Origin: Bacilli bacterium
GTDB taxonomy: Bacteria; Bacillota_I; Bacilli_A; RFN20; CAG-826
Length of the DNA stretch: 64,000 nucleotides
Assembly: GCA_017940265.1 (NCBI GenBank)
Contig: JAGAYY010000025.1
Coordinates: forward strand, 256,711-320,710
Direction: 5' to 3'
Below the pieces are notes generated by a model. The model searched no databases. It had not been told where the DNA came from and was given only the letters and a program-made list of their open reading frames with translations. Made by a program: the position numbers and the translations under genes. Each line of letters starts with the position of its first letter. Within the stretch, counting starts at the first letter, position 1. This document shows, piece after piece, positions 2,540-40,965 of the stretch.

Positions 2540-4102
2540 TTATTTAACAACAACGCCAGTATCGACTGAACCATCACCCTCGATCTTAACATTACGATCG
2601 GTTTTAGCAGCGATAGTATTGGTCTTAAGAATGTCGGCCATATCAACACCAGTCACGTCCTTCATAACATCCATGGTCTGTTTAATTACAGAAGGAACAT
2701 TACCTGCAAATCCTGCAGCCTCAGTTCCAGTAGTACCATAAATCTTGATATCACCAATCTTACCCATTGGTTCAGCAATACTTCGTGCAACCTCTGGCAT
2801 AACCTTTTCTGTCATCTTGGTTAGAATATCAATTACAGCGACATGACCATATTTCTCATAGGCTTCTGCTTTCTTCTGCATAGCTTGAGCTTCTGCCTCA
2901 CCCTTAGCCAGGATACCGGCTGCTTCTGCCTCTAATCCTGCTTGTTTAGCCGCAGCCTCAGCTTTACCCTTCGCTTCAATACCTGCAGCTTCCTGAAGAG
3001 CAGAATACTTATCAGCATCAGCTTTAACCTGAATAGCTTTAGCCTCCTGTTCAGCTAAATATGCCTTAGCTTCAGCCTCACGCTTCTGTTGTTCAAGTTT
3101 TGCCTGAGCATCAATCTCTGTCTGATATTTCTTAGCATCAGAGTTTACTTGAGTTTGATACTTTTCAGCATCGGCTTGAGCATTAACCTGGGCCTTAAGT
3201 TCATTTTGCTTAATTTTGATCTTTTCCTCAGAAAGAACTTGTTCACGCTTAGTTTGTTCAATCTGGGCATCAACAGTTTTAGTGTTGATAGTTTTTTGCT
3301 GTTCCTGCTTCTGAATTTCATATGCAGCATCAGCTTCAGCTTTCTTTGTGTCAGAGACCTTTTTAAGATCTGCTTTTTTAATTTCAAGCTCATTATTACG
3401 TTCAGCAATCTCAGTCTCTGTCTTAACTCTCACATCATTTGCTGTTTTCTTTGCTTCCTGTTCAGCAACGGCAATGTCACGTTCTGCATTTGCTTTGGTA
3501 ATAGCTGCATTCTTTCGGATAGCATAAGTATTATCAGCACCTAAGTTCTCGATAAGTTTATTTGAATCAGTTATGTTCTGAATATTACAAGAAATAACTT
3601 CAAGACCAAGTTTTGCCATATCCTTAGCAGCTTTTGCCTGAATTTCATCTGAGAACTTATCCCTGTCCGTGATTAAATTTTGGAGGGTTATGGCGCCAAC
3701 CACCTCTCTCATATTTCCCTCTAATGAATCCTTAATCTCAGAAGCAATCTGGGATGGATTCATGTTAAGAAAGTTTTTAGCGGCTAATCTTGTACCAGCT
3801 CCATCAGGTAAAGCTCTTACTTTGCACACAGCATCAACCATAACATCAATAAAATCATGCGTTGGTACTGGGATAGAAGTTTTTACATCCACAGAAACCT
3901 GGCCAAGAAACACCTTATCAAGACGTTCCAAGATAGGAATCTTAAATCCACCTGTACCAATAAGAACTCGAGGTTCTTTTTTAAGACCTGATAAAATGTA
4001 GGCATAAGATGGAGGAGCCTTAACATACATACTGAAGGCTAGTACCACCAATAGAACTACAACAATTGCAATTCCAATTAATACTAAATTTGAAGTAAAC
4101 AT
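2540..4102 (-). CDS. flotillin-like SPFH/Band-7 membrane protein
   Basis: 520 aa. N-terminal TM helix, SPFH core (..ILSGLKKEPRVLIGTGGFKIPILERL..GLEVISCNIQNITD..), long Ala/Glu/Lys/Gln coiled coil (AEAEAKA.., GLEAEAAGILAKGEAEAQA), C-terminal flotillin-type tail. Confidence 0.9.
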   Translation of the reverse strand: MFTSNLVLIGIAIVVVLLVVLAFSMYVKAPPSYAYILSGLKKEPRVLIGTGGFKIPILERLDKVFLGQVSVDVKTSIPVPTHDFIDVMVDAVCKVRALPDGAGTRLAAKNFLNMNPSQIASEIKDSLEGNMREVVGAITLQNLITDRDKFSDEIQAKAAKDMAKLGLEVISCNIQNITDSNKLIENLGADNTYAIRKNAAITKANAERDIAVAEQEAKKTANDVRVKTETEIAERNNELEIKKADLKKVSDTKKAEADAAYEIQKQEQQKTINTKTVDAQIEQTKREQVLSEEKIKIKQNELKAQVNAQADAEKYQTQVNSDAKKYQTEIDAQAKLEQQKREAEAKAYLAEQEAKAIQVKADADKYSALQEAAGIEAKGKAEAAAKQAGLEAEAAGILAKGEAEAQAMQKKAEAYEKYGHVAVIDILTKMTEKVMPEVARSIAEPMGKIGDIKIYGTTGTEAAGFAGNVPSVIKQTMDVMKDVTGVDMADILKTNTIAAKTDRNVKIEGDGSVDTGVVVK

Positions 4103-4132: not shown

Positions 4133-4420
4133 TTATAAGGAATATACCCTTTCTCCAATTTTAAGAACATAATAAATCTTTCCAGGTTCGGCTCCCCAAT
4201 CTGGATTTCCGGATTTCACTTCTATTCCGTTAAGTTTAAATCTCATTCGTCTTGATAGGTCACTGCTCTTAGGATAACCAAGAGTAAATTCAACGAAGTC
4301 ATAGTGTTTTCCAACTAGTCTCTTCGTCCAATATTCTGTTATTTCTCGGTACTCTTCTATTTTGATACCAGCCTCAATTAATCGATACCATATTTCTTTA
4401 AGTGATAAGTATAATATCAT
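4133..4420 (-). CDS. hypothetical protein (possible ASCH/PUA-like fold)
   Basis: 95-aa ORF; LSLKEIWYRLIEAGIKIEEYRE..YW resembles the ASCH N-terminal pattern; weak, by eye. Confidence 0.55.
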   Translation of the reverse strand: MILYLSLKEIWYRLIEAGIKIEEYREITEYWTKRLVGKHYDFVEFTLGYPKSSDLSRRMRFKLNGIEVKSGNPDWGAEPGKIYYVLKIGERVYSL

Positions 4421-4604
4421 AATGATCTACAAAATTATCATTATCTAGGTCCTTAATAGCTTCTTCCTCAGTATCAAATCTACAGGCACAAACATGATGA
4501 CTGGTAAGATTAACGAAACAATATTTACCAGAGGCACGATCAAACATAATCTCTGTTTCTCGCACAGATCCATCCTTTCTAGTGACTATTATTCTTCTCG
4601 GCAT
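4398..4604 (-). CDS. hypothetical protein
   Basis: 68-aa ORF in overlapping minus-strand gene train. Confidence 0.5.
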   Translation of the reverse strand: MPRRIIVTRKDGSVRETEIMFDRASGKYCFVNLTSHHVCACRFDTEEEAIKDLDNDNFVDHYDIILIT

Positions 4605-36715: not shown

Positions 36716-36904
36716 ATGAAAATAAAACGTAAGAATTTCGCTGTTAAAGTAATTAGCGATGATCTAATTAAGAAACAAGTAGCGGCAGAAGTCAAGAAAA
36801 GTACAGATTGGATATTAAAAAATAAACCATCCATAAAATTCCTTCGACCTGCCACTAAGAAGAGTAGTTGGTTTAGTAAGAAGGAAGGAGAAAAAGATGA
36901 ATAA
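36716..36904 (+). CDS. leader-bearing small basic protein
   Basis: MKIKRKNFA (longest ORF starts at 36710); overlaps the terL start by 8 nt. Confidence 0.55.
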   Translation: MKIKRKNFAVKVISDDLIKKQVAAEVKKSTDWILKNKPSIKFLRPATKKSSWFSKKEGEKDE

Positions 36905-37538
36905 CCTAGATTTTATAGATCATTCCCCCAAGTTTGATCCTTTGGCAAGTGAAAGGGAAATAGATAATGCTTCCCTTGAAAAACAATACGCATCTTTAAG
37001 TGAAGAAGAAAAAAATTTAGTTTATGCTAAACTGAATGGCTATAGGTATATTCCACCAACTATACGTCAAATGTGGGAAGACACTTATTTTTTAGGTGGA
37101 GAAGCTTTTTACAATAAAGGTATTGCATTATTTGATTACTGGAAAAAAGTTCTTGAGGATGATATATTCAGTGGTCCTTTTTTTATAAAGAAGAACTATA
37201 TAGTAGCTAGTGGTGCTATAGGAATTGGCAAAAGTACGTTCGCTAGGTTATGCTGGATGGAGAATCACGCTAGAATGCTTTCAATGCGTCAGCCCTATAG
37301 TACTCTTAAGATTGTTCCAAAAACACTAAGTTATGTAATAATGCATAAATCTGAAGAAACTGCAATTGTAGAGTTTAAGAGATGGTTTTTAAGAGACGTT
37401 ATGGAATTATCTCCATTTTTTAAAAATGTCAAAAACGAAAATTTTAAATTCAAAGTAATTTGTAGCGGTCCAAGAGGTGTAGCAGGATTAGGTAGTGATA
37501 GAAATGTCGTCTATATTGGTAACAGTATAGATTATTAG
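36897..37538 (+). CDS. terL: terminase large subunit, N-terminal (ATPase) part
   Basis: Walker A VASGAIGIGKSTFA. The frame ends at TAG 37536-38, before any Walker B or nuclease domain. Confidence 0.85.
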   Translation: MNNLDFIDHSPKFDPLASEREIDNASLEKQYASLSEEEKNLVYAKLNGYRYIPPTIRQMWEDTYFLGGEAFYNKGIALFDYWKKVLEDDIFSGPFFIKKNYIVASGAIGIGKSTFARLCWMENHARMLSMRQPYSTLKIVPKTLSYVIMHKSEETAIVEFKRWFLRDVMELSPFFKNVKNENFKFKVICSGPRGVAGLGSDRNVVYIGNSIDY

Positions 37539-37755
37539 TGGGCAAAAACGGTGAAAGGTGTGATTCCTAATACCGTGCTAATTTAAAAGTTAACATATTT
37601 AAATAGTGTAACGAGTAGGCAGTGAAACTTTTATAAAGAATATAATCTGCCCAAGAGTGTCCGCCATCCTTCCTAGGAAGGATGAAAATGTACTCTGAAC
37701 TAATGCGAACAAGAAGTATTAGAACTACAAGATAAATAGCTTGTAGGATAACATA
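37539..37755 (+). mobile_element. structured insertion in terL: candidate ORF-less group I intron
   Basis: No ORF. Nested perfect helices: 37548-52/37572-76, 37618-22/37647-51, 37654-58/37692-96, 37665-73/37676-84 (9 bp), 37700-04/37718-22, 37725-31/37740-46 (7 bp). The boundaries are only the ORF limits, not mapped splice sites. Confidence 0.5.
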
Positions 37756-39060
37756 TTGGTTATTTTTTACCTAATAAGTGAATCTAATTTCTGGACCCCA
37801 TCTGAATTAGCTTTTGATAAGATTTCAACCGCCTTAATAAGATTTAAATCAAGATTTAACTCAGATACTCTACAAAATGTAGGACAAATTATCATTGACT
37901 CTTCTGCTAAAGGTGTACTAGATAGTACAAAGTGGTTTGTTGAGAATTCAGATCCTAAATATACCTGGTTTGATAGTCCTGCTCACTACGAAGTTAGGCC
38001 CCAAGATTATAAGGAGTCAGATGGAAAAACGTTTAAAGTATTTACCGGTAGTGGAAAATATCCGCCTCAAATATTGGCTAATGATGATAACCCTGACCCT
38101 TCTATATATGATCCCGATAAAATAATAAAAGTACCTATTCAATTATTACGCGACTATAAAAGAGCTTTAGTAAAAAGTTTACAGGATTATTCAGGTATTA
38201 GTACTGGAAGTACTGATTCTTTCTTCGGTGGAAATATTAAACACATTGTTGAATCTTCTACTATAATAAATAGAATTCCTGAAATAATAACCGTAGATTT
38301 TTATGATAAAACAGACAGGCTCTTAGATCATATATGGCCAATGTTATCTTTACTTCCTTATAAAACTCCAATTTGGTTAGGACTTGACCTTAGTTATGCT
38401 AAAGGAGGAGATAAAACAGGAATAGCTATATCTACATTTGAGGGCTGGGAAATAATAAACGGCACTAAACTTCCAAAAATGGCTGTTAGATTAATTGTAG
38501 CTATCCAAAATAAAGAAGGTCAAGAAATATCATTATTCCACATAGAACAGCTAATAATGGATTTACATAAGAGATTTAATCTAACAGTAAATGCAGATGC
38601 TGCATATTCTAGACAAATCTTACAAGCTTGCGATAGGGAAGGAATTAATAATAATGGTAGAATATCAACTGATATTGTTCCATGTGAGCCAGCACTTTAT
38701 ACAAAATCTGCAATAAATGGTGGACAAGTTCAACTAGTCATACATAAAAGATTTCAGAGAGAAGCTTATGATTTATATTATACAGAAAAAGGGAAAGTAG
38801 ATCACCCTAAAAAAGCTTCTATTAGTAATGACTTTGACAATCCACCAGGTAATCCAACTCCAGAAAAAGGAAGTAAGGACTGTTGGGATGCAGTATGTCA
38901 AAGCTTATATGGTATCAAACTAAGTATTGATGCCGGAGACGAATATGGAATGAATGGCGGATATTATAAAGAACTACAGGTAATGAATAAAGTGACTGAT
39001 GACCCAAGAGAAAGATCTAGAGAAATAGTTCAATCTATGATGGAGTCAGTATTCGATTAA
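37756..39060 (+). CDS. terL: terminase large subunit, C-terminal part (rest of ATPase + RNase H-like nuclease)
   Basis: ..VIFYLISESNFW.., nuclease acidic blocks WLGLDLSYAKGGDKTGIAI, VNADAAYS, KDCWDAV. The frame is open from 37747, and the 'start' at 37756 is a TTG artefact. Confidence 0.85.
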   Translation: MVIFYLISESNFWTPSELAFDKISTALIRFKSRFNSDTLQNVGQIIIDSSAKGVLDSTKWFVENSDPKYTWFDSPAHYEVRPQDYKESDGKTFKVFTGSGKYPPQILANDDNPDPSIYDPDKIIKVPIQLLRDYKRALVKSLQDYSGISTGSTDSFFGGNIKHIVESSTIINRIPEIITVDFYDKTDRLLDHIWPMLSLLPYKTPIWLGLDLSYAKGGDKTGIAISTFEGWEIINGTKLPKMAVRLIVAIQNKEGQEISLFHIEQLIMDLHKRFNLTVNADAAYSRQILQACDREGINNNGRISTDIVPCEPALYTKSAINGGQVQLVIHKRFQREAYDLYYTEKGKVDHPKKASISNDFDNPPGNPTPEKGSKDCWDAVCQSLYGIKLSIDAGDEYGMNGGYYKELQVMNKVTDDPRERSREIVQSMMESVFD

Positions 39061-39093: not shown

Positions 39094-40965
39094 ATGAAAT
39101 TGAAAACTAATAAACATAAGATTATGAATAAAGTAAATTGGAAAAATGAATTATCTAAACTTCGAGAATATATTGAAGTGAAACATATGACATTCGAGGA
39201 GGTTGGAAAAATATATAATAAGCCTAAAGGACAAATCGAAGTTGTATGTATAAGATATGGTATTAAATATGCCCATAGAAAAGTTTTCCCTTGGAGAGAA
39301 GATGAAATAAATACTGTCAAAGAGGAATTGCTTAAAGGTAAAACCTATGAAGAAATTTCTGAGTTACTACCAGGGAGAACCAAAAATGCGGTAAAGTCTC
39401 TTTATGAATATCATAGTAAGGAATTAAATTTAGTAAAACCTAAAAAACCAAATGGTATTACTAGTGAAAATGAAATAAAAATAAAGGAACTAGTATTAGA
39501 TGGTTATCCTGACCCTTGGATAAAACAATTAACTGGAGTATCTACTGATTGGATTTTAAAAGTAAAAGAAAAATACAATATTATTCAACCTAGTATAGAA
39601 GAACTACAAGATAAAGGTATATTTTTTACTAGTACTCCTAATATTACGCGTATAGAAACTGAATTGACTAAAGAAAAATTAATTTTATTACTGAATGACA
39701 ACGTTTCTATATGTGAAATGTCCAGAAGATATAGTATAAATATAAACACTATAAGAAATTTAGTAAGACGCCTTGGTTGGAAAGATGAAAAACTTGCATC
39801 TGCTAAAAATCTTAAACGCAAATTATATAAAGAGATACATGGGATAATAAATCCTACAGAAAAGCAACTTAATAAATCTTTCTTAAGCATATTTACTAGA
39901 GATTATATTCTAGATCTTCTCATAAGAAATGAATATAGTCTTAAGAAATGTTCATTAGAGCTTGATAATATAGATCCGAAATGTATATCTAGTGCTATAA
40001 AGAAATATAATATTGATATACCAGAAGATTTTGATTATAAAAGAAAATTTGGTCCATCATTTCAAAGTAGAATGGAGAACAATAGGAAAGAGTTTAGAGA
40101 ATATATGAATATTTATTTTCCGGATTATGAAATTATAGAAGATTATATTGGATCAGAAGAACATATAAAGCTAAGATGCAAAATACATCCGGAAGAAATT
40201 ATAGTAACCACTCCTTACTCTATAAAAACTATATTTACTTTACATGATGAAAACGGAAATATAATAGGAACTAAGCACCTCTGCAAAAAGTGTAAAGACC
40301 TAGAAGAAATCGCTAAAAAACTAACTGTTATTAAAAAAGAAATAGAAGAAACTTTTCCTGGTAAATTTGATCTTTCTGAATCAACTATAGAAAAAGTTTT
40401 TGTTTCTGAAAAATCTGGGCATAAATTAGTACTTACTAATATAAAATGCAATAAATGTGGTAATGTGTTTAAAGCAGATATTTATGACATTAGAAACAGT
40501 GGAGTTTGTAAGTTCTGTGATCTAAAATCTTCTGGAGAAATAAAAACAAAAACAGTTCTAGATAGACTTGGGATAAGCTATACAGAACAAAAATTAAACA
40601 ATCATGCAGTTCCCAAAGAAATAAGATCAATGGGTATATTTATAGATTTTTGTTTGGAGTATAATGGAAAAGAAATATGGATTGAATATAATGGTTCTCA
40701 ACATTATAAGTTTTCCACTAAATTTCATCAGAATATGGATGAATTTAAAAATAATATTCTACGTGATCTTTATGAGAGAAAATATTGTGAAGAGAATGGA
40801 ATACTTCTTATAGAAATACCATATACTTTCGATACTATAGATAAAATCCAAAATCTCTTACAGAAGGTAATTATTGATGGTCAGGATATAAATACTATCA
40901 TTGACTATAAACCTTTCTATGAGAAGATTAATAAACTTGGTGGTATATATGCAAATAATACGTAA
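39094..40965 (+). CDS. free-standing homing-endonuclease-like protein (multi-HTH + Zn-ribbons + PD-(D/E)XK/Vsr-like C-terminus)
   Basis: At least 5 HTH-like modules (e.g. MTFEEVGKIYNKPKGQIEVVCIRYGI; VSICEMSRRYSININTIRNLVRRLGW). CKKC/CNKCG..CKFC. C-terminus SSGEIKTKTVLDRLGI..FIDFCL..IWIEYNGSQHY. Markedly more AT-rich than terL. Confidence 0.6.
   Translation: MKLKTNKHKIMNKVNWKNELSKLREYIEVKHMTFEEVGKIYNKPKGQIEVVCIRYGIKYAHRKVFPWREDEINTVKEELLKGKTYEEISELLPGRTKNAVKSLYEYHSKELNLVKPKKPNGITSENEIKIKELVLDGYPDPWIKQLTGVSTDWILKVKEKYNIIQPSIEELQDKGIFFTSTPNITRIETELTKEKLILLLNDNVSICEMSRRYSININTIRNLVRRLGWKDEKLASAKNLKRKLYKEIHGIINPTEKQLNKSFLSIFTRDYILDLLIRNEYSLKKCSLELDNIDPKCISSAIKKYNIDIPEDFDYKRKFGPSFQSRMENNRKEFREYMNIYFPDYEIIEDYIGSEEHIKLRCKIHPEEIIVTTPYSIKTIFTLHDENGNIIGTKHLCKKCKDLEEIAKKLTVIKKEIEETFPGKFDLSESTIEKVFVSEKSGHKLVLTNIKCNKCGNVFKADIYDIRNSGVCKFCDLKSSGEIKTKTVLDRLGISYTEQKLNNHAVPKEIRSMGIFIDFCLEYNGKEIWIEYNGSQHYKFSTKFHQNMDEFKNNILRDLYERKYCEENGILLIEIPYTFDTIDKIQNLLQKVIIDGQDINTIIDYKPFYEKINKLGGIYANNT

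Follow-up and report, generated by a model that had tools for sequence, protein, structure and literature searches.

Evidence for a small group I intron of subgroup IA-like architecture in the terL gene of a contig assigned to a Bacilli bacterium

The gene encoding the large terminase subunit, terL, is interrupted in the 64,000-nucleotide (nt) stretch of DNA analyzed here, which spans positions 256,711 to 320,710 of contig JAGAYY010000025.1 (assembly GCA_017940265.1, Bacilli bacterium) and is referred to below as the window. We consider it very likely that the interruption is a small group I intron of subgroup IA-like architecture without an open reading frame (ORF), located at positions 37500..37758 of the forward strand and 259 nt in length. 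This reading draws on a match to the Rfam family RF00028, on a custom covariance model termed R1, on covariation among related introns and on the folding energy of the insert expressed as a z-score. Excision of 37500-37758 restores an intact host gene with a product of 634 amino acids (aa), whose structural model recovers a terminase fold. That terL contains a small group I intron lacking an ORF was what the original prediction, made from the sequence alone, had proposed, and this proposal gained support from the full-model Rfam match, the covarying relatives, the restored colinear terminase and published precedent (PMC12880540, PMC11878797).

The interrupted terL gene and its insert

The first part of terL is read on the forward strand from an ATG at 36897, which is preceded by a good Shine-Dalgarno sequence (GGAGAAAAAG), to a TAG at 37536-38. 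This ORF (36897..37538) encodes 213 aa including the Walker A motif SGAIGIGKST, and the ORF list confirmed that the Walker A half ends where it had been reported to end. The second part lies in a different frame of the same strand, is preceded by a TAG at 37744-46 and is open from 37747 to 39060. That it is open only from 37747 and has a TTG (37756) as its sole start codon was correctly noted at the outset, while the statement that it lacks a plausible start was slightly overstated, since an AGGA at 37745-48 sits 7 nt before the TTG. The gap between the halves is indeed without ORFs: the ORF list contains none of at least 30 aa on the forward strand, only two short minus-strand ORFs starting with TTG. 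Within 37500-37758 forward-strand ORFs of at least 30 aa are equally absent, and no endonuclease ORF occupies a peripheral loop. After removal of the intron, exon 1 (36897..37499, forward strand, 201 codons) contains the Walker A motif GAIGIGKST and ends with GLGSD and U37499 as its last base, and exon 2 (37759..39060, forward strand, 433 codons and a stop) begins with VIFYLISE, comprising the Walker B strand and the catalytic Glu, and encodes the nuclease domain.

The interrupted gene is terL, because the joined protein matches PHROG 2 ('terminase large subunit') at 6.4e-7 and the best PDB matches of its structural model are large terminases. The AlphaFold model of the 634-aa spliced protein (mean pLDDT 83.8) contains a strand at residues 201-208, at the junction, and the top PDB matches obtained with Foldseek were HK97 TerL (6z6d, 2.6e-10), T4 gp17 (3cpe, 6.3e-9) and T7 TerL, with additional matches to the terminase nuclease domains of G20c (1.9e-5) and P74-26. 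Motifs, PHROG 2 and Foldseek together identify the combination that characterizes a TerL, an N-terminal ASCE ATPase with Walker A and Walker B followed by a C-terminal RNase H-like nuclease. No match was found in Pfam searches with both terL halves or with distant homologues, in a PDB sequence search with the terL family profile, or by Megablast of the terL gene against GenBank phages.

Searches with the joined protein returned about 80 uninterrupted homologues of 615-640 aa and 45-60% identity that cover 96-100% of both halves. The second ORF alone is present in the public record as a hypothetical protein of 434 aa (P0001) from a 'Bacilli bacterium' metagenome-assembled genome, on contigs of up to 394 kb. 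The terL region was identical on five contigs from different samples, from approximately 250-360 nt upstream to 100 nt downstream of 37759, and the insert is therefore not an assembly error.

When 701 nt were searched against Rfam, a check suggested in the original prediction, RF00028 (Intron_gpI) aligned with 37487-37716 over the full model (positions 1-253) at 33.4 bits and an E-value of 1e-6. The custom model R1 scored the terL intron at 227.7 bits. The folding energy of the 37500-37758 RNA was -67.4 kcal/mol compared to -46.6 +/- 4.4 for shuffled sequences (z = -4.73), and none of 200 shuffles was as stable; the structure of the insert is real and non-random. Searches for further introns in the window with model R1 recovered the terL copy alone, with all other matches at or below 16 bits, and the same single copy was obtained by nhmmer with both of the intron types described below. 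A Rfam search of 41-50 kb of the window returned nothing.

A number of observations weigh against an intron with these boundaries. The Rfam match, even though full-length, remained under the gathering score of 50 bits and missed the family threshold, and the search of the whole 64-kb window against Rfam at E <= 0.01 gave no match, the terL intron itself being lost to filters. The predicted helix at the 5' splice site, P1, is short with five pairs, three of which are wobbles, and P10 attains at best three pairs when the exons are joined at 37499|37759. Two other in-frame junctions, 37496|37747 and 37493|37759, also obey the rules of a U before the 5' splice site and a G as the last intron base. 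The AGGA-N7-TTG arrangement at 37745-58 could in principle permit separate translation of the second half, and an exact search of IMG/VR with the predicted ligated junction recovered no intron-less allele of the same phage. In view of the sub-threshold Rfam score and the loss of the intron in the whole-window search, group I membership was tested by comparison with relatives.

Covariation and architecture

Related introns were located by pattern and protein-guided searches. A terL homologue on a 206-kb contig from ENA (L001) is interrupted twice, and when its second insert (2761-2994) is aligned pairwise with that of the window, short exon flanks included, column identity amounts to 76%; the first and second L001 inserts (i1 and i2) scored 34.7 and 26.7 bits, respectively, with the Rfam model Intron_gpI. 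Paired changes between L001 and the window affect P7 (GCGUA/UACGC vs GAGUA/UACUC) as well as P3 and P5, and the hairpin following P7 reads GAAGA/UCUUC in L001 and GGCAG/CUGCC in the window. Other relatives in terL are found in L095, L100 and L033 and include the 'site B' introns of L034 and L063, which are without the P7.1-type hairpin, while L096 and L103 contain relatives in DNA polymerase A genes. The relative in L004/L098 carries an internal ORF, which is placed after P5/P6. From the pattern searches with 19-mers and 22-mers of P2, only L004/L005/L098/L102, L095, L096, L100, L101 and L103 were genuine relatives; L003, L006-L016, L097, L099 and L104-L107 were rejected as chance matches to the P2 pattern in coding sequences and Nitrososphaeraceae 23S rRNA.

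Two alignments were examined, a plain MAFFT alignment of five introns (A4; 41 pairs, 205 cells) and a set of 13 model-aligned introns (A5). In A4, 98.0% of the cells were paired, compared to 34-49% when the 3' partners were slid by 1-3 columns, and 15 of the 41 pairs were double-changed. None of 500 shuffles reached the observed value for four of the five measures, and three of 500 did so for the remaining one, the count of further pair types. In A5, 94.4% of the cells were paired and 35 of the 41 pairs showed compensatory changes, with the slid controls ranging from 32-49% across both alignments. P7, which lies outside the model, was paired at 100% in the 13 sequences and contains two covarying pairs (A-U/C-G and G-C/A-U/C-G). 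The predicted group I core, consisting of P3-P8 with the P4-P6 stack and the P3/P7 pseudoknot, is backed by this covariation.

The elements follow each other on the forward strand in the order P1, P2, P3, P4, P5, P6, P7, a P7.1-type hairpin, P3', P8, P7', P9, P9.1 and a 12-nt tail. P1 (37495..37510) pairs GUGAU of the exon (37495-99) with the guide GUCGU (37506-10) across the loop AGAAAU and contains the U37499-G37506 wobble. The P2 hairpin CUAUA/UAUAG (37511..37530) is invariant in A4, while in A5 it is 98.4% paired with four of five pairs double-changed. The 5' strand of P3 (37538..37543) pairs with its 3' strand (37659..37664), and all six pairs are double-changed across the relatives. P4 and P5 (37548..37576) are nested, P4 (37548-52/37572-76) enclosing P5 (37556-58/37566-68), and both exhibit compensatory changes such as A-U to U-A at 37548/76 in P4 and G-C to C-G at 37558/66 in P5. 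The P6 hairpin CU-A-AUUUAAA / UUUAAAU-AG (37578..37606) was read from the sequence; its C-G and U-A pairs are conserved, and its distal part differs in length between relatives.

P7 is formed by GAGUA (37613..37617) and UACUC (37691..37695) and makes a pseudoknot with P3. Its first pair, G37613-C37695, is invariant in all ten sequences that have letters at these positions, consistent with a guanosine-binding site. Between P7 and P3' lies the P7.1-type hairpin GGCAG...CUGCC (37618..37651), which is always paired and has compensatory changes at four of five pairs in A4 and at all five in A5. The P8 hairpin CAUCCUUC/GAAGGAUG (37665..37684) is double-changed at eight of eight pairs in A5. The P9 hairpin CUAAUGC/GUAUUAG (37700..37722) was taken from the minimum free energy fold and has equivalents with compensatory changes in L096 and L103, and P9.1, CUACAAG/CUUGUAG (37725..37746), is represented in these two introns by UUAUAGG/CCUAUAA at the same place, with compensatory changes at three pairs. 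Both helices that had been quoted when the intron was first proposed are present, CATCCTTCC..GGAAGGATG at 37665-84 being P8 and CTACAAG..CTTGTAG at 37725-46 being P9.1. The 3' tail GAUAACAUAUUG (37747..37758) ends in the terminal G37758 and has homologous tails that are intronic in L096 and L103.

Most phage introns are placed in subgroup IA, which is characterized by additional pairing between P7 and P3'. The window intron has one P7.1-type hairpin at the place where IA introns have P7.1/P7.2, a layout that points to a subgroup IA-like architecture.

Splice sites and alternative readings

The comparison with homologues and relatives most likely places the 5' splice site after U37499, 37 nt upstream of the TAG, and the terminal G of the intron at G37758. 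Only the junction 37499|37759 combines the spacing of the homologues with a U before the 5' splice site and a G as the last intron base. Uninterrupted homologues contain G-L-G-x-D followed by exactly eight residues to the catalytic Glu (as in VIFxxLGE) without any gaps, and the joined product, which reads GLGSD|VIFYLISESNFW, aligned gap-free with 28 of them; an alignment of this kind had been proposed at the outset as a means to locate the junction. Exon 1 would end with ...GGU AGU GAU, the intron with ...AUAUUG, and exon 2 would start with GUU AUU UUU, for a predicted ligated junction of ...GGTAGTGAT|GTTATTTTTTAC... (longer form GGATTAGGTAGTGAT|GTTATTTTTTACC; junction peptide GLGSDVIFYLISESNFWTPSELAFDK). 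The first ORF therefore runs into the intron from 37500 onward, and its final 12 sense codons (RNVVYIGNSIDY) and its stop are intronic. These boundaries differ from those of the original prediction, which had described a 217-nt insert between the TAG and the TTG with a terminal G at 37747: the intron begins upstream of the TAG inside the first ORF, G37758 lies 12 nt past the last helix, and G37747 falls within the 3' tail of the intron under the best model.

At the 5' end, the guide begins directly 5' of P2 with G37506, the partner of U37499, and the same position is used by the relatives with a read 5' junction. These relatives combine exon GGU with guide GCC, with the exception of the intron at site C in L063, which is of a different type and follows CUU. 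The window has exon GAU and guide GUC, the single difference in the guide compensating the single difference in the exon. At the 3' end, L096 and L103 share P9, P9.1 and the tail layout with the window, and their homologous tails (GAUAACAAACUG in L096 and GAUAACAAACG in L103) are intronic according to the polymerase frame, the junctions being AEV|KSAGFMSGD in L096 and KRW S|SGFH in L103. For the latter, L096 provides confirmation with its intron-less sequence KRWSSGFHT. The tails end in G at frame-fixed junctions in L096, L103 and L033. At the position of G37746, both L096 and L103 have an A, so that the terminal G cannot lie at this place in their introns, which makes a terminal G beside the last helix of the window intron (37747) unlikely.

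The same intron could be spliced at one of the two other in-frame junctions, a reading that we regard as unlikely but the best of the alternatives. With U37496 and G37746 as the last exon and intron bases, the product would read GLGS|DNILVIFY and gain three aa (NIL; ligated sequence GGTAGT|GATAAC), and with U37493 and G37758 it would read GLG|VIFY and lose two (SD; TTAGGT|GTTATT), compared to GGTAGTGAT|GTTATT in the best model. Both pairs place a U before the 5' splice site and a G at the end of the intron, and GGU, after which the relatives with a read 5' junction splice except for site C in L063, is present at 37491-93. For 37496|37747, the 3' exon start GAUA could in addition pair with UGUC at 37505-08 in a P10 of 4 bp, and the 3' end of this version is close to the one first proposed. 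All 28 homologues, however, match the spacing of 37499|37759 exactly and gap-free, and the change of the guide from GCC to GUC suits exon GAU rather than GGU. The version with three additional aa would use as terminal G a base, G37746, that forms the closing pair of P9.1 and is an A in L096 and L103, hence not terminal there, while the version shorter by two aa removes a residue that is Asp in most homologues. The junction 37496|37747, derived from the U of the Rfam consensus, was our initial choice and was rejected due to its 3-aa insertion, which is absent from all homologues.

A second possibility, which we consider very improbable, is that TerL consists of two polypeptides, the Walker A half and a half with Walker B and the nuclease domain translated from the TTG at 37756, that assemble in trans, with the spacer being a decayed, non-splicing remnant of an intron. 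The AGGA-N7-TTG spacing mentioned above, the annotation of the 434-aa ORF alone by gene callers (P0001) and the Rfam score below gathering are in line with this possibility. The core helices, the U-G wobble and the terminal G are nevertheless all intact and covary with the relatives, which is unexpected for a dead remnant, and the break is located inside the ATPase core, just before the Walker B strand. The approximately 80 homologues are single polypeptides, and RNA reads show splicing in related split terL genes (PMC12880540).

Bridging of the break during translation (readthrough, recoding, frameshift or ribosomal bypass) as well as a sequencing or assembly artefact are effectively refuted by the sequence, and we assign them next to no probability. 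Recoding of TAG is found in some large gut phages, and ribosomal bypassing is exemplified by T4 gene 60, but the two halves of terL are in different frames, as had been argued from the start against a suppressed stop, and an in-frame TAA (37584) follows 16 codons past the TAG instead of the 17 first counted. A bypass of 259 nt would far exceed the known 50 nt, the other ORFs of the window read normally in genetic code 11, the same sequence was present on five independent contigs, and the insert belongs to a covarying ribozyme family. A group II intron, intein or insertion sequence is just as improbable, considering that the insert is ORF-less, out of frame and only 259 nt long, that an intein would need to be in frame and protein-coding, that group II introns, with their six domains, are far larger, and that Intron_gpI was the only notable Rfam match. 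Elements of these three kinds are also reported in phage genes (PMC12350094; PMC12880540).

Predicted splicing, mobility and related phage introns

While the fold family, its covariation and the restored colinearity of the protein are supported by the data above, the splicing of the window copy is inferred from established group I intron chemistry and would proceed as follows. The terL gene would be transcribed as one pre-mRNA in which the intron folds, and pairing of the guide GUCGU (37506-10) with the exon end GUGAU would form P1 and present U37499. An exogenous guanosine bound at P7 would then attack the bond after U37499. Subsequently, G37758 would take over the P7 site, and the free 3' OH of exon 1 would attack after G37758 and be ligated to G37759. 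The product would be an mRNA for the 634-aa TerL in which the junction lies between the codon of Asp201 and that of Val202, at the start of the Walker B strand, so that Walker A would be contributed by exon 1 and Walker B, the catalytic Glu209 and the nuclease domain by exon 2. The unspliced RNA would yield only the 213-aa Walker A fragment that ends at the TAG at 37536, and packaging activity would therefore be expected to depend on splicing.

Directly downstream of terL, the forward strand contains a free-standing homing-endonuclease-like gene (39094..40965) for a protein of 623 aa, which matches PHROG 559 ('HNH endonuclease') at 2.2e-23 as well as PHROGs 7140 and 9084 ('intron encoded nuclease', 'homing endonuclease'). 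Helix-turn-helix or Myb-like repeats make up the N-terminal part of the protein and an endonuclease-like domain its C-terminal part, and a homologue of its gene is located directly upstream of terL in L001. Free-standing endonucleases aimed at intron-less alleles are known in other phages; a comparable arrangement is plausible in the window, where the 623-aa protein is possibly a helper or a competitor in the mobility of the intron.

Introns related to the one in the window occupy at least five positions within approximately 20 codons around the Walker B region of terL, namely GPRG|AGG, GLG|ND, GSD|V, TDL|IF and DVLV|Y, where GSD|V is the window site and TDL|IF, after CUU, harbors a different intron type. 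Sites of the window's intron type follow GGU, matched by the guide GCC, except for the window copy with GAU and the guide GUC. As a tentative explanation, members of the family may reverse-splice into nearby positions with the aid of their three-base guide, the window copy having been retargeted or having 'slid' by 6 nt from a GLG| insertion, and it may be kept by, or protect against, the adjacent endonuclease.

Several observations on the relatives were made in parallel. A second very small group I-like intron in L001 (2336-2489) is inserted in the Ile codon of the terL Walker A motif (GAI|GIGKST, phase 2); it measures 154 nt in L001, where it seems to be without P8 in the Rfam alignment, and approximately 171 nt in IMG/VR contigs (L030:~1816-1986, L036 and site A of L063). 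The window terL has no intron at this Ile site. In L063 (2228-2630; IMG/VR 3300045988_178892 and similar contigs), terL contains three introns, two of which are parted by a mini-exon of 24 nt (AGGLGTDL), and these represent two types, with the intron at site B resembling the window intron and the one at site C resembling the Walker A intron. The relative in L033 (2087-2278) is inserted three codons further downstream (GLGSDVLV, phase 2 | YILSE) and has no P7.1 and a short P8. The family A DNA polymerase gene of L096 contains at least three interruptions in the vicinity of motif A (2590-3771 and 4273-4568); one insert holds an ORF for 221 aa (2703-3368), and an exon of approximately 14 nt (SSAEV) separates two inserts. 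L103 has an extra intron (KRW S|SGFH) that is absent from L096.

A close parallel comes from the Jug jumbo gut phages (360-402 kb), for which 2513 group I introns with an average of approximately 206 nt and many free-standing homing endonucleases have been reported, with terL being split into two or three fragments in most genomes and metatranscriptome reads spanning the ligated junctions (PMC12880540). The window shares with them a small group I intron in terL of large gut phages, and the IMG/VR contigs of 200-400 kb with related introns (L034, L063 and others), which contain one to three terL inserts, fit the description of Jug phages. In contrast to the terL genes of these contigs, the window encodes a TerL that is only about 53% identical and carries its intron at a different codon (D201|V202), and the 'site B' introns are without the P7.1 hairpin and the P9.1 of the window intron.

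In the Bastillevirinae, five of 52 terL genes are split, some by two to three introns with tiny internal exons, and the terL introns of SIOphi splice in vitro and in vivo (PMC11878797). The introns of these Bacillus phages are mostly IA2- or IA3-like and reside in terL and DNA polymerase genes, and PHROG 559 endonucleases are associated with their terL as in the window (PMC11878797). Unlike the 259-nt ORF-less window intron, however, they average approximately 800 nt and usually contain an internal endonuclease ORF, whereas the PHROG 559-like gene of the window is located outside the intron, downstream of terL.

Among cultured phages, the closest DNA match to the window intron, queried with 10 nt of exon on each side, was found in phiCD211/phiCDIF1296T of Clostridioides difficile (70.5% identity, 82% query coverage, E 1e-23). 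It lies between two fragments of the tape-measure coding sequence, beside an annotated Intron_gpI, and the matching copy itself is unannotated; in contrast to the window, the host gene is tape-measure and the phage is of a different type (131 kb). This split gene seems to hold two tandem group I introns (L113:2501-2756, corresponding to NC_029048.2 28613-28868, and 28891-29156), of which only the second is annotated as Intron_gpI, the first being the match to the window query. Other cultured-phage copies of approximately 70% identity were present in Bacillus phage PJN02, crAss-like cr6_1, Lak-A1 and C. perfringens phages. The classical phage introns of subgroup IA2 include those of T4 td, nrdB and sunY, of Twort and of the SPO1 DNA polymerase. 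With these, the window intron shares an extra pairing between P7 and P3', insertion at conserved catalytic motif sites in DNA-metabolism genes, a U-G pair at the 5' splice site and a terminal G, while the T4 introns differ in carrying endonuclease ORFs and in having both P7.1 and P7.2.

With respect to the origin of the window, dense short ORFs, terL and the homing-endonuclease-like gene were observed together, and viral contigs of 200-400 kb in IMG/VR harbor the relatives of its terL; the window may be part of a jumbo phage genome that was binned as a bacterium. One homologue, P0080, is 43% identical to the window TerL overall, yet its first approximately 30 residues are nearly identical (MSNLDFIDHSPKFDPLASEREIDNVSL...; window 36897-36990), a pattern suggestive of a mosaic 5' end of terL created by recombination.

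The window intron is a further example of a documented phenomenon and is set apart only by its site at D201|V202, its retargeted guide and its small size; given that terL introns have already been published with RNA evidence, it opens no new question. It adds a small (259 nt), ORF-less and well defined ribozyme with good comparative support, and it identifies a hot spot in the terL of these large phages, the regions of Walker A and Walker B, that two intron types have invaded repeatedly. The correct annotation of the gene is join(36897..37499,37759..39060), encoding one protein of 634 aa instead of the two hypothetical proteins of 213 and 434 aa that the public record lists at present. TerL is a standard marker for phage phylogeny, and split gene calls of this kind therefore distort trees and estimates of genome completeness.

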